Source: a virus | Lineage: Duplodnaviria > Heunggongvirae > Uroviricota > Caudoviricetes | Strand: one strand, 5' to 3' | DNA length: 64,000 bases | IMG/VR virus record: IMGVR_UViG_3300045977_000087 | Shown here: positions 15,001-33,000 of the stretch, piece by piece | Layout of the letters: the number at the start of each line of letters is the position of its first letter | Position numbering within the stretch: the stretch's first letter is position 1 | Made by a program: the position numbers

Positions 15001-18000
15001 GTGCCAAGCACCTCTCTCTCTTTAGGGGTGAGCTCTATAGGGAGGAAAGGGTTGATTATGTTCAGGTGATACCTGTAATATTCTACCCTTGTAAGCTCAG
15101 TAATTCCCTTCTGAATTAATTTCATTTTAGTATCCATATTTATTCAATTTCTAAATCCTTCTGCCCTGCCCTAAGGTAACCCTTCTTTGTTTCTACATTA
15201 TAAATGTAATCTCCTTCATCAGGATAGGCAGCTTTAGCTGCATTCCTAAACACCTCCATATCACTCCTTTCAACATCAGGATTAAGCTGATAGTAATTAT
15301 ACCCAGAGACAGCTAAAGCACCCTCCCTAAGTTCATTAATATATGCTCTCCTTATCTCCTTAGCTGTAAGTATTATATACTTAGAAAGGTTCTCATCAGA
15401 TACTAATGGTAAATCCATGACAGTAAGTATTAATGATTTCTATTACCCTTTCTTTGGGTGGGTTTGTTGTTACTCTTGGGGTTTCCTTTGTAAAGCCTTT
15501 TAGCTTTGGGCCCAGTTATGTCACATGCACATTTTTGCTTTTTCATGGCTTAAGTAATTAGTGTTCTTTGTAATCTCGTAACTTCATTAGTCTGGTCATC
15601 ATCCTTAACATCATAAGGCTGTTGAAGACCTAACATAAAATATCTGTAAACTTCCACATTGAATCTGTGGATAAGATAGGCCTCATGTAACTGTGGCCCC
15701 CTGTCAATCTTGGGTATGAGGTAATACACTTTGTTGTACCTCTTTCTAATAAGAGTCTGAAACTCTACATCCCCCTCTGCCATCTCCCTTCTCTTAATCT
15801 CAGGGTAGATAGGGAAATTCCTCTTTAAGTCCTGTGCTGTGTCCATAGCTCCCAACCTTTAATATTAATATTAACAAAGTTAAAGAATTTAATTAAGGTT
15901 AGGGGGAAAATTTTTTTAAAATTTTGGTATGTGAACCCTATAAAATTTTTAAAAATTAATGTAAATGTGGACCATTATGAAAAACCCCCTAGCCAATCTT
16001 TAGCGAATACAATGCCCCCCCAGGCTTTGTAATCCAAAGGGGTCTCTTCCCAGCAATTTATTGTAGTGAGGCAACCCCTTTCTTGATGTAGAGTTTAATT
16101 CTAAATTTATATACTATGAAAACTTTAGCTGAAATCAAGAAAGAATTGGGTGTGGAAACTATCAACATGGATAGAGTTGTAACAGAGCAGGATGAACAAA
16201 CATCATGGCTCAAGGATTGGGACAATAATAACCGCGTTGCTATCCTCATGCATGAGGACACATACCAAGCAATCCTAGCAGACCCTGCTATTAGTACACT
16301 GGGAGTTCACTACCAGACTAAGAAAGGGGCTAATGGGAACTATGAGGCTAAGACCATAGTGATGTACAAGAAGGCAGAGTTCGTCTTGTAACTATGGGAA
16401 CAGGTTAGGACAGGCATTAAGCCTGTCCATGCTTACCTGTTAACTAAGTCTAATTAATTCGTAACAATTTAAATCTTTATATTATGTATGCAACTGACAC
16501 TTTAATGACACTTCAACAAGTAATCAAATACAATTTATGGACTGATAAATCCTATTGTGAAGAGTGGATTGTGTTATTATCACCTGATGAAGAAACTGAA
16601 GTAATCATCAACAAGAATGATGTAGAAGAATTTCTTGCTACAGACTTCAGACAAGAAGAACCTGCATTTGGATACTACACCAGTATCATTAAGACATGTA
16701 TTCAACAACATAGAATAATCAGAATGTCTTCACTGCAGCACACTGCACTGTAACTAAGAGGAGCTAACAACTCCTCTTTATTTAAGCACATAGCTTAGGA
16801 TAACATCCTAGGCTATGTGTTCTTTTTTTTCCTAGAGATAAGAGAGATAGATTAAGTGTAAAAGAGGTAGAAGAAAGTGTACTTAATTCAACCCTAGTGT
16901 AAGTGCATAAAAAGATATTAGGGCAACCCCCTATTTTATGCCTAGTAATCATAATCCTTAAATACATACAAAAATGAAAACACTTGCAGAAATCAAAGCA
17001 GCTTTAGGAGTACAAACATTGAACTTTAACAGAGTAGTTACTGAGTCAGATGAGGAGACTAGTTGGTTAAAGGATTGGAATAATGATAGCAGGGTAGCTA
17101 TCCTTATGCATGAAGATACCCTAAATGCCATTAAGGCAAATCCTGCCATAAATACCCTAGGTATTCATGAGCAGGTAAAGAAGGGAGCACAGGGAGATTA
17201 TACAGCTAAGACAATAGTTGTATATAAGCCAGCTGAGTTTGTGCTTTAATGAGTACACAACTATCACAGATATAATCTGTGGTAGTTGTTTCTTTTTTTT
17301 CTCTTTTTCAAATAGTGCAATTAGTGTTAAAAATGTAAGTAATAGTGTACAGGCAACCCCTTCATATGCTTCTATAACCTGTAATACCTATTCTTAATTG
17401 TTAAATTAGTTAAATAAATTGTTTATATAGTGGTGTTCATATTACCTTTGGAAAAGGGTAATGTGAATAGCAACCCTGTAAAGTTGGGAGGGGGGTGTGT
17501 GAGGGGGGAACCCTTAGATTCAAAAGACATTTTATTCTTACAAATGCGTGAATCTTTTGTATTAAATATGTGCTAACTAACTACCTATGTTAATTGGCAC
17601 ATTTTTATTTACCCCAAATTCTAATAGATTATTTGCTAATAGCCTTTTATTCCAATTACCCCAATTAACCCCAATTATTTCAGTAGTTTTAAATACCTCA
17701 ATTACCTCAGTTAAAATCCCATGGGGCAACCCCCTATTTTATTTATAGTATCAATCATTAATCATTTAATACACACATTTATTATGACACTAACAGAGAT
17801 TAAAGCAGAATTAGGAGTTTCAAATATTAATTTGAACAGAGTGGTAACAGAAGCTAATGAGGAAACTCAATGGTTTAAAGATTGGGATAATACAAATAGA
17901 GTAGCTATCCTAATCCATGAAGATACCTTAGCTCAAGTTAAGGATTCTACTACTCTTGGTATTCATGTACAAGAGAAGAAAGGTGCTCAAGGTAATTATA

Positions 18001-30000: not shown

Positions 30001-33000
30001 AGAGCAGAGAGGCCAGAGAGGCCAGTATTGAATTTGAACTTGACTGCCAAATTAGAAAAGGCAGAAAAAGGCTGGAAAAGCAGTAAAATTTTGTACCTTT
30101 AATCACTAAATCTAAGTAAAATGAGAAAGTTTGCTATAATTGTTGTCATAGGTATTGCTATAGCAGTAATATTAATGTTAATAGGTTGTACAGCTCATGT
30201 TACAGCTAGGCCAACAAGGACATGGCCACCTCATAGACCTCACTATGAGGAAAGACATAGAGATTGTGATAGAGACAGGGATGGCAATTGCCATCATCAC
30301 CATAAGAAAGGAAAAGGCCATTATAAGCACAAAGGTAAAGGGCATGGTCATCATGGTGATTAGGAAAAGGGCTTGAAGATAGCCCTTTTCTGTTCTAAAA
30401 TTGGTATGAGATATGAGCTTAAGACCCCAAGAGTATCTACAAATAGAAAACCCTCCTATCACTAAGAGGGTTCTCTGGGGAGCGTGGCAAAAAATCCAGG
30501 AGAGTTATTTCTTTGTCGGGTTATATCTCATACCAAATTTACAATTAAATTTTATACAAACAGTAATATTAATTAAATTTTTACACAACATGGAAAACAA
30601 CATGGAGAATACCCCAGAGAATCAAGGAGAGGAGTTTATTAATAACCCTAAAACCCCTAACAATGAAAGCACAGAAAGCACCCAAAACTGGGAAGAAGGC
30701 ATACCAAGCCAAGAAGCCAAAGATGCCTATGAAGCCAAAAAAAGCTTAAGGGTAACCTCAGTAATGTGGGAAGGGATGGTAATTGACATTGACCATACCC
30801 AAGATTGTGTATCAGGTGCCCTTGGAACTGACCTTGATACTATAGTTGAGAAACTTGACAGAATCAAGGAGAAGAAAGACTACAGAAGAGAGATGTGTGC
30901 ACAACTACCTGAAGATGATTGTGCATGTATGCAGAAATCTGAAATTGGTGTAGAAGTTCTAAGAAGCTTCAGTATTCAGGAAATTATGTTTCTTGCCCTT
31001 AGAGGAATAGATGCCATATTTGATGAAACTGAGAGGGAAGCTGTCCCTCAGGCTCTTATGAATTTCCTTGCTAAGATACAATCTGCAGAAAGGAAAAGAT
31101 TAGGTGAGTAAAAAGTAAGAGAGGCTTGTCCTCTCTTTCTTGTTTCTACACTAGCCTAGCTTCTGTTGTTTCAGTGAATTTTTTTCTTGCAAGGCTTGTG
31201 GCAACCCCCTAGTTAATTTATAGTGTTGCCTCAATTATTTTACATGGCAATACTGCATTTATTGGTTCAGTTTCAAATCCCTATGTTTAACCTACTACAA
31301 AAGGAAGAAAAGTAAAGGCTAATGGACAAGCCTTAAGATGTCCAAATCTAACCTATCTAAAACAGTTAATATGAAAACAAAAACTACCAAAGCAAAAAGT
31401 TTATTACGTCTATTAAGAAGAAAGTTTAATTCATGGGTTAAGCCAGAACCTGGAGTGGTAGCTACACATCTTCAGGCAGAGAGCATTGTACATCTTCTTC
31501 GTAAAAGATACTCACTACATGAGCAGAATGAAATTCTGTTAGAATGTGGAGAGCTATTACTTACCTTAAGGGAGGAAGATAGGAGACATCTTGAAGCAAA
31601 GCTTCAGGATTTAAACACAGAAACAATGTCACTGGCTTCAGCTATGAATATGAGGGTTAAGCATATAGGGATTTAAACAAAAAGAGGATACAAGGGGAAT
31701 AAGTCCTTACGGCATCCCCTGTACCTTTCTTGAAACAAAACAAGGGGAGATAGCAAAATGGTGCTTTATGTGGATATACATAATACAGGTTCAATTCCTG
31801 TTCTTCCCACCAAAAAGCAGATATAAGTAGTCCTAGTACCTATTAAGGTCCACATAGTGGTAAACCTTTGGAGAACACACTCAAGCATATGCGCTTTCCT
31901 TGCTATAAAGTACCTGTACCCTGAGGGGGGAGTAGTGTCATCCACAATAGCAAGGTTTTGTATTAAAATAAATGAAATACGTTCTTTGAAAGCAGATTGA
32001 TTAAGTACTTGCTACAGTACATAAATATCAGTCAAATTAAGTCCAAGTCTTGAGCCTGCAGTTCCTCATTTATCTGTAAGCATAGAGACACCAAAACAAA
32101 TTATTTACTTTTTAATTATTTAAACATGGAAAATTTAAATCCAACACAGACTCCAGTTGAAACACCTAGTTCAACACCAACTCCAGTACCAACTCCAGCA
32201 CCTAAATCAGAGATTAGAAAAGAGATTATACCTCAACCTATTGCTATTTCAAGAGTGTATGAAGCTCAGTTCCAAAAAGAAGGAACTATGACAGCTGAAT
32301 TAAAACAGACTATAACTACTAAGAGTTATTACCCAAATAAGTCTGTAAGCAGTAACCTGCAAGATAACCCATTCCAAATTAATGAGTTCAGCTTTAAAGA
32401 GTCAGAGCCATTTGTAAATGAGGAAACAAGGGTTGCTTGGGTAGATGTACCTGTAGGAACAACACCAGAAATTGTAGCTGAAAGATTAGCTAATGCTCCA
32501 GGTGCTTGTATCTATAAGATTCTATCTAACAAGCCTACAATCTCTGATAATCAACAAAGAGCTATTGTTTCTAAGATGACAAGTCTTGAAGCTATTGCAT
32601 CTAAGCAGGTTGTCAGATATCCTAAAGGTCATGAATCAGAAGGAAATCTGATTGTTGACCTAACAGGAAAACCCCAATATAGAAGTGTTTATTTCTCTAT
32701 GACAGCTAAAGAGGATATTGACCTAAGAACTGAAGACCCAGCTGATTTCTATGCAACTAAAGAAATAAGCATGGAGTTGACAAGAGGTGCAGTTCCTAAT
32801 ACTGCTGCTATTGTAGGAGACCAACACATTCTTTAAATTTGTGGAACAAAGTGAGGTTAAAATGCCTTACTTTGTTCTTTTTTTTCAGATATAACATGTG
32901 ATAGAATTATGATAAAGAAATTGACTTACATCACTGCAGAATTTGTAGAGATGAGTGCTCCAGAGGAGATGGTAGGCTATCTTGGCAACAAGAAGAACAG

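Follow-up and report, generated by a model that had tools for sequence, protein, structure and literature searches.

The IMG/VR record IMGVR_UViG_3300045977_000087 provides 64,000 nucleotides (nt) of a Caudoviricetes genome, hereafter the window, in which a ~30-nt motif recurs upstream of genes at the head of the plus-strand, early module. The phage is crAss-like: its large terminase (TerL) shares 65% identity with those of FpV4, Fpv3, and the FPSV series, all phages of Flavobacterium psychrophilum, and matches crAssphage and Bacteroides crAss-like phages more weakly. By strand composition, the window divides into a minus-strand capsid module (1-15850), a plus-strand module (15850-56000), and a second minus-strand module (56000-64000). 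PHROG matches identify structural and replication genes within this layout (Table 1), including helicases.

The 9-mer core of the motif, GGCAACCCC, occurs exactly seven times in the window (16070, 16922, 17352, 17725, 20294, 23639, and 31200), always on the plus strand and never on the minus strand, and the commonest 12-mer of the window, GGCAACCCCCTA, is present in five copies. When up to two mismatches are allowed, the 13-mer GGGCAACCCCCTA matches five times against an expectation of 0.83, a count that none of 100 shuffles reached. A position weight matrix (PWM) built from the window copies retrieves exactly eight sites from the whole window at 23-46 bits; the next best match scores 13.5 bits, which is at the level of shuffled windows (mean best score 8.9 bits, maximum 17.9 bits). 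An initial annotation of this DNA had described a recurrent plus-strand motif with at least seven copies, and these counts bear it out. Leave-one-out PWM scoring was used to grade the copies. Five are full (16922, 17725, 20294, 23639, and 31200; 24-40 bits), two are partial (16070, 13.3 bits; 15982, 10.1 bits), and the copy at 17352 is core-only, sharing the 9-mer at a leave-one-out score of -6.6 bits. All eight are intergenic and on the plus strand, spanning 15982-31231, such that the motif covers approximately the first 15 kb of the early module and ends at 31.2 kb.

The conserved unit is an ungapped 30-nt block (CAACCCCCTAGTnnATnTAGAGTnnAAT in the window, CAAAACCCTCACTnATTnnTAGTATTAAT in relatives) rather than the GGGG-CAA-CCCC palindrome that had drawn attention to it. 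The motif runs further 3' than earlier described, with a second conserved half reading (T)AGAGT..AAT.

Gene and terminator context of the motif copies

Five copies precede genes, starting at 16116, 16974, 17784, 20338, and 23690, at distances of 46, 52, 59, 44, and 51 nt from the first G of the motif to the ATG, which leaves 14-30 nt between the end of the block and the start codon. The spacing of 46-63 nt proposed initially thus holds, as 44-59 nt, for these five copies; it does not extend to the 31200 copy, which lies 138 nt from the next open reading frame (ORF, starting at 31338), or to the 17352 copy, which has no credible ORF. Four copies lie 24-100 nt past strong intrinsic terminators, and the 15500-32500 region contains 25 plus-strand terminator-like sites where 10.1 ± 3.2 are expected. 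The early region is organized as cassettes of terminator, putative promoter, and small gene.

The first early gene encodes a 91-amino acid (aa) protein and is one of three tandem paralogues, 74% and 68% identical, each with its own copy of the motif. The flanks of these three copies have nothing in common beyond the motif, and the genes that follow three other copies are unrelated; the repeat has therefore been kept by selection and is not a leftover of duplication. Homologues of the 91-aa protein (MANLAEIK, MATIAEIK, and so on) are encoded downstream of the motif in relatives, and the gene is conserved across the clade as the first early gene. The protein has no Pfam or PHROG match, and a locus search with it in IMG/VR found nothing; among the early ORFs, only 23690-24202 could be assigned to a PHROG or Pfam family (YpsA/SLOG). 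This ~90-aa immediate-early protein (M.TLAEIK) is a candidate host-takeover protein.

Between paralogues 2 and 3 lie ~530 nt without a credible ORF (17250-17783), headed by the weak 17354 copy and containing a G-rich tract (17486-17513) and GGGAGGGGGGTGTGTGAGGGGGGAACCC. This stretch recalls phage phi14:2, for which two long, highly transcribed early intergenic regions have been reported.

Table 1. Coordinates of motif copies, terminators, and genes in the window
Feature	Position	Strand	Remarks
Major head protein	5541-6995	-	PHROG match
Portal	8306-10723	-	PHROG match
Large terminase	10774-12960	-	PHROG match
Motif copy P1, first, divergent	15982-16011	+	AAACCCCCTAGCCAATCTTTAGCGAATACA, then ATGCCCCCCC; inside the divergent junction of the late (-) and early (+) modules
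Motif copy P2, partial	16072-16101	+	87 nt after P1, 15 nt before ATG at 16116
First early gene, 91 aa (MKTLAEIK...)	16116-16391	+	One of three tandem paralogues
Intrinsic terminator, 17-bp stem and T-run	16785-16831	+	Closes the unit before the 16924 copy
Motif copy, full	16924-16953	+	Upstream of paralogue starting at 16974
Paralogue 2	16974-17249	+	Own motif copy
Intrinsic terminator	17257-17299	+	Precedes the 17354 copy
Motif copy, core-only	17354-17383	+	GGCAACCCC kept, 3' half decayed; 63 nt past terminator; heads ~430 nt without a credible ORF
Motif copy, full, best match	17727-17756	+	Upstream of paralogue starting at 17784
Paralogue 3	17784-18047	+	Own motif copy
Intrinsic terminator	20248-20278	+	Precedes the 20296 copy
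Motif copy, full	20296-20325	+	24 nt past terminator; upstream of 74-aa ORF starting at 20338
Motif copy, full	23641-23670	+	Upstream of 170-aa YpsA/SLOG-family ORF starting at 23690
Intrinsic terminator	31117-31147	+	Precedes the 31202 copy
Motif copy, full, last	31202-31231	+	62 nt past terminator; 138 nt before ORF at 31338
DNA polymerase	33580-35529	+	PHROG match
1659-aa protein	56730-61709	-	In the position of phi14:2 g065 (RNA polymerase-associated virion protein), by synteny
Giant virion protein, C-terminal ~760 aa	61721-64000	-	Runs off the window end; catalytic motif beyond the window

Conservation across the clade

Relatives were collected as contigs whose TerL is 49-78% identical to that of the window, comprising IMG/VR loci (0.97 Mb, both strands scanned) and 45 metagenomic loci, and a clade PWM was built from the window copies together with those of the relatives. 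A strict regular expression retrieved 44 copies in relatives. With the PWM, the total reached 105 unique copies, eight in the window and 97 in more than 30 related metagenomic contigs and FpV4; the search of the remaining window and of related phages that the initial annotation suggested thus recovered the motif, in relatives as a cognate variant. This cognate element, ctCAAAACCCTCACTnATTnnGAGTATTAAT, is found in four to seven copies per locus on the early strand in the TerL-related IMG/VR loci and FpV4. At a threshold of at least 14 bits, no copy departs from the early strand, on which all 83 matches in the IMG/VR loci fall (83/83). A looser cut-off of 12 bits in the metagenome loci gave 40 early-strand matches and two weak ones on the opposite strand, and shuffled sequence yielded no match to the clade PWM. 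ORFs of at least 90 aa make up 79% of the sequence, and 119 of 121 motif matches lie outside them. The complete FpV4 genome (88 kb) carries five copies, all on the minus strand (390, 273, 14, 87805, and 83707) and all within the first ~5 kb of its early module, with none elsewhere in the genome. Around the block (-12 to +45), the flanks show a faint pyrimidine patch at -5 to -2 and no further conserved block.

The window differs from its relatives in a coordinated manner. Relative to the clade consensus, CAAaACCCtCACTnATTnnTAGTATTAAT, the window phage has a concerted variant, (G)GGCAACCCCCTAGTnnATnTAGAGTnnAAT, in which five to six substitutions (AA to CC, CACT to AGTy) are common to all window copies; the contrast is seen between GGCAACCCCCTAGT in the window and CAAAACCCTCACT in the clade, and in the ungapped alignment of GGCAACCCCCTAGTcaATctaGAGTgcAAT (window) with CTCAAAACCCTCACTgaTTacGAGTatTAAT (relatives). 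Such window-wide substitutions are the pattern expected when promoters co-evolve with a phage-encoded polymerase. The exact window motif occurs neither in FpV4 nor in 80 TerL-related IMG/VR loci, and an IMG/VR-wide scan for it gave 56 single matches, which is chance level. No close relative with the window variant was found, the metagenome TerL scan topping out at 78% identity. Among 185,579 bacterial and archaeal genomes, the clade consensus has seven scattered single matches, none of them in Flavobacteriia; being essentially absent from cellular genomes, it is not the promoter of a host regulon.

The layout at the junction where the late and early modules diverge is conserved. Besides the window, 24 unique sequences, among them FpV4, have an orthologue of the P1 copy at this junction, reading ..ACCCCCACTnAnnnnTAGGATTACAAGnCCCCC. 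Several relatives have P1, then ~85 nt, then P2 as a standard copy, then 16-20 nt, and then the ATG of the ~90-aa "EIK" protein, M..(L/I)(A/S)EIK. The window has the same layout, with P1 at 15982, P2 at 16072, and the ATG at 16116, and the copy at 15982, which the initial annotation called degenerate, is therefore a genuine, orthologous element.

Immediately 3' of P1, the window and relatives have a conserved C-run (CCCCC) followed by a hairpin that differs from phage to phage in position and sequence (relatives, e.g., L067, minus strand, ~5243; L113, minus strand, ~1037; the FpV4 record, ~390). In the window, where this region spans 16012-16071, the hairpin reads CTTTG-TAATC-CAAAG and is flanked by CCCC/GGGG. 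In many relatives, the hairpin is followed by an A+T block, TATATTATATAGAAAA, and the P1-P2 spacing of ~85 nt is kept. This region might encode a small RNA or form a structured 5' leader. Single sequences do fold after the C-run, but an RNAalifold alignment gave no consensus pair, and a conserved structure downstream of P1 was rejected. In several relatives, a conserved leader of ~45 nt, ctaaTTGCAAGGaCATtaaatacgtgctc..., also separates the motif from the start codons of genes that are not related to one another (L149, minus strand, 3874; L067, minus strand, 4931; L106, minus strand, 5172); in the window, TTGCAAGGCTT is found at 31187, directly upstream of the 31202 copy instead of between motif and ATG.

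Palindrome, host-type boxes, and known promoter systems

We examined whether the inverted repeat that first marked the motif is part of the conserved signal. The GGGG/CCCC repeat pairs over 4 bp in two window copies, over 3 bp in two more, and over 2 bp or not at all in the rest, and relatives retain the motif and not the G-run. Folded as single-stranded DNA, the window copies form stems of 2-5 bp with energies of -0.7 to -3.9 kcal/mol (z-scores of -1.95 to +0.5 against shuffles). Among the 97 copies from relatives, 11.3% can form a stem of at least 4 bp, compared with 11.7 ± 1.7% of permuted controls. The inverted-repeat core of the initial annotation thus reaches 4 bp in two copies only and is not kept in relatives, and its alternative of a conserved hairpin in the 5' untranslated region finds no support in either data set. 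The GGGG-CAA-CCCC palindrome is incidental. Given that no hairpin is conserved or stable, readings of the motif as a hairpin, an operator dyad, a terminator, or an N4-like promoter fall away. A compensatory dyad inside the block, CTA..TAG in the window against CTC..GAG in relatives, was also rejected because TAG is frequent beside CTC or CTT.

The likeness to the Bacteroidota -7 box noted initially proved superficial. TAnnTTTG is present in no window copy and at no position of the consensus, and the stretch of the relatives that corresponds to the -7-like part of the window is different (CACTnATT). The -33 TTG, which in Bacteroidota sigma-A promoters stands ~19 nt upstream of the -7 box, is also lacking, and the motif flanks contain nothing resembling a -33 or -35 element. 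Host-type boxes do occur elsewhere in the window. Three identical plus-strand boxes, TATATTTG (28039-28046, 40209-40216, and 51266-51273), lie upstream of three plus-strand genes, and minus-strand boxes reading TATATTTG, TACTTTTG, and TAAATTTG lie upstream of late genes (2963, 10761, 8239, and 1629). The motif is therefore a separate class, and the distribution suggests a mixed program in which the first units use the novel motif, whereas later plus-strand genes and late genes use host promoters. The middle promoters of phi14:2 (P070, P075, P108, and P110) have been reported to read TTG-N19-TAnnTTTG, in keeping with the Bacteroidota sigma-A elements (-33 TTG and -7 TAnnTTTG). Although phi14:2 belongs to the same phage group and infects the same host phylum, the motif has neither element, and a -7 box model, which suits those middle promoters and the late genes, was rejected for it. 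A sigma-54 reading, based on GG-N10-GC in tGGCAAccccctaGT, was ruled out by eye, as the -12 GC is missing and relatives lack the GG.

In several respects, the motif resembles promoters of phages that carry their own polymerase. The virion RNA polymerase (RNAP) promoters of coliphage N4 (Schitoviridae) are DNA hairpins with a stem of 5-7 bp and a 3-nt loop. As with the N4 early promoters, the motif has few copies, which lie at the front of the early region, oriented with the early genes and ahead of the first genes expressed, and its presumed reader is a giant polymerase that enters with the DNA. Unlike N4, the 4-bp GGGG-CAA-CCCC hairpin is found in two of the eight copies, is thermodynamically insignificant, and is absent from relatives; an N4-type hairpin promoter was rejected because neither the window copies nor those of relatives form such a stem. 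The polymerases are likewise unrelated, N4 having a T7-like fold and crAss-like phages a two-barrel, QDE-1-like fold. Like the promoters of T7, T3, and SP6, the motif is one contiguous, high-information block (~23-30 nt) of strict orientation, with no separate -35 and -10 elements and with lineage-specific substitutions common to all copies of one genome. It shares no sequence similarity with them, however, no T7-like RNAP domain is found in the scanned ORFs, and the candidate reader is a two-barrel virion enzyme. The early promoters of phiKZ and AR9 are short A+T-rich motifs used by multisubunit enzymes. They resemble the case proposed here in having a phage-specific consensus upstream of early genes that a packaged two-barrel polymerase uses without the host enzyme (reported for AR9), but the present block is 30 nt long, one half of it C-rich, and the candidate enzyme is a single giant polypeptide.

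Two further features of the plus-strand module stand apart from the motif. A 1027-aa protein (51306-54389, plus strand) combines a type-IX-secretion C-terminal sorting domain (Por_Secre_tail, 29.2 bits) with an HYR-like domain; a phage-encoded secreted or surface protein is unusual for this "early"-strand module, and the sorting domain fits a Bacteroidota host. Rfam tRNA models match 31744-31809 (plus strand, 37.7 bits), downstream of the last motif copy, and 26300-26364 (plus strand, 29.1 bits, gathering score 29). ARAGORN calls neither, and both may be degenerate or unusual tRNA-like elements.

A candidate virion polymerase and rival explanations

From its position, orientation, and conservation, we conclude that the motif is very probably a phage-specific early promoter, whichever enzyme reads it. 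In phi14:2, the rightward module equivalent to that of the window has been reported to be early, rifampicin-resistant, and transcribed by the virion RNAP; by synteny, the motif would lie upstream of rifampicin-resistant early-class genes. The crAss-type enzyme has been described as a single-polypeptide, two-barrel polymerase related to the eukaryotic polymerases of RNA interference. The phage has this polymerase: at the end of the window, the 61721-64000 ORF is 30% identical (E = 8e-86) to residues 3576-4224 of FpV4 ALN97145 (4288 aa). The sequence GLDYDIDK at residue 3116 of ALN97145 matches the catalytic GSDFDIDK at 1361 of phi14:2 gp66, the virion RNAP, placing the giant protein of the clade with two-barrel gp66 and not with the T7-like domain of N4. 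In FpV4 (KT876724.1, 33880-46743; L141/L002), one ORF of 4288 aa encodes the giant protein, its annotation reading only "putative structural protein," and the catalytic motif is DYDID, not DFDxD. A phmmer comparison found no overall similarity between the FpV4 4288-aa protein and gp66, and the two large virion ORFs of the window have no sequence match among solved structures, gp66 included. Only one contig encoding the 1659-aa protein was found; it is 13.4 kb, lies inside the window span, and does not reach the polymerase catalytic site.

Whether this virion-delivered, crAss-type polymerase reads the early promoter is, in our estimation, an evenly balanced question. Given that the motif has no host sigma-A elements, is absent from cells, and is needed before any phage protein, the virion RNAP is the most likely reader. 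In the mechanism we propose, copies of the strictly oriented ~30-nt motif would stand in front of the first transcription units in the early module, where the virion RNAP, alone or with co-injected proteins, would recognize them. The C-rich 5' half would act as the specificity element, and the A+T-rich 3' half, AGTATTAAT, as the site of DNA opening, with transcription probably starting shortly downstream. P1 occupies the junction in which plus-strand transcription has to begin, because the neighboring gene is on the other strand. Host-type TAnnTTTG promoters would then serve the late modules and a few later plus-strand genes. More tentatively, the 30-nt block could represent the first defined sequence-specific promoter for a crAss-type virion RNAP, found throughout a clade of crAss-like phages of Flavobacteriia, FpV4 included, with lineage-specific switches of specificity.

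Several observations weigh against a virion RNAP as the reader. The part of the window phage's RNAP seen here does not include the catalytic region, which lies outside the window. The only crAss-like phage in which early transcription has been studied is phi14:2, and no common early motif was detected there; our own searches of phi14:2 by regular expression, k-mer, and PWM likewise found no copy. The use of a sequence-specific promoter therefore does not extend to crAss virion RNAPs in general. Furthermore, gp66 in vitro was reported to transcribe only single-stranded or denatured DNA. Downstream of 31.2 kb, moreover, the replication genes, among them those for DNA polymerase and helicase, have no copy; the motif may stop there because the immediate-early set is small, as in crAss001, because transcription reads through, or because host-type boxes take over further on. 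Since the PWM copies were picked with the motif itself, conservation inside the block is inflated, although the strand, position, and flank statistics are unaffected. Finally, promoter activity, the polymerase using the motif, and the start site are deduced from sequence features, namely, the repeat, its orientation, its intergenic placement behind terminators and in the divergent junction, and the presence of conserved copies throughout the clade.

An early promoter could instead be read by the host RNAP, through an alternative host sigma factor or a small phage specificity factor that is co-injected or made very early, which we consider unlikely. The evidence of placement and conservation fits this arrangement equally well, as does the lack of a common motif among the virion-RNAP transcripts of phi14:2, and the 3' half (TAGAGT / TATTAAT) vaguely resembles a -10 box. 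Yet the motif lacks -33 and -7 elements, its absence from the Flavobacteriia and other genomes scanned speaks against a host regulon, and neither a sigma-like nor a T7-like RNAP domain was detected in the 36 early-module ORFs scanned within the window. The first units, moreover, require machinery that is present before phage gene expression, and the concerted variant of the window favors a phage-encoded reader. Of the initial proposal of an early promoter or operator family, the promoter is strongly supported by position, orientation, and conservation, and the operator dyad is not. That the block is bound by a phage regulator, for example in early-gene shut-off, with a weakly conserved true promoter overlapping or flanking it, is improbable: its repetition upstream of early genes, its length and specificity, and the short dyads of the window copies (GGGG..CCCC and CTAG..CTAG) would suit an operator, but the block is asymmetric and always in a single orientation, no dyad is conserved in relatives, and the -12 to +45 interval offers no other conserved block as a promoter.

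We judge it quite improbable that the motif acts at the RNA level, whether as a conserved element of the 5' untranslated region, as a site of processing, or as a hairpin within a long early transcript. Its orientation with transcription, its position 14-30 nt before five start codons, and the small G/C hairpin of the window copies would agree with such a role. Against it, P1 occupies the divergent junction, where the plus strand has nothing upstream that could transcribe it, several copies sit behind strong terminators, and the 17354 copy, P1, and many copies in relatives have no nearby ORF; the hairpins, too, are no stabler than shuffles and are not conserved. A weak intrinsic terminator, consisting of the G/C hairpin and a T-rich tail, is extremely improbable even though a simple scan flags 16919-16933, 17721-17737, and 20290-20306 as terminator-like. 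These stems are 4-6 bp with marginal energy, relatives have no hairpin, and real terminators lie just upstream of motif copies; the conserved 3' half has no role in termination, and P1 has nothing to terminate.

Recognition by the virion RNAP would give the motif a significance beyond this phage. A family of phage-specific early promoters is familiar as a kind; this sequence family is new, and so is its candidacy as a promoter of a crAss-type RNAP. The searchable literature contained no description of the motif, of FpV4 promoters, or of a promoter consensus for a crAss-type virion polymerase, and a 2023 review of the crAss-like phage order makes no mention of promoters. CrAss-like phages, which rank among the most abundant known viruses, all carry a giant virion RNAP, and the motif bears on how that enzyme chooses its start sites. 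Because the clade in which the motif is conserved contains a phage that can be grown with its host, FpV4 on Flavobacterium psychrophilum, the proposal is directly testable. If the motif depends on the host polymerase, it would still constitute a new promoter class in phages of Flavobacteriia. If the virion RNAP does read it, the block would serve as a template for biochemical and structural work on promoter complexes of crAss-type polymerases, help annotate immediate-early genes in metagenomic genomes of crAss-like phages, and supply an orthogonal promoter-polymerase pair for Bacteroidota.

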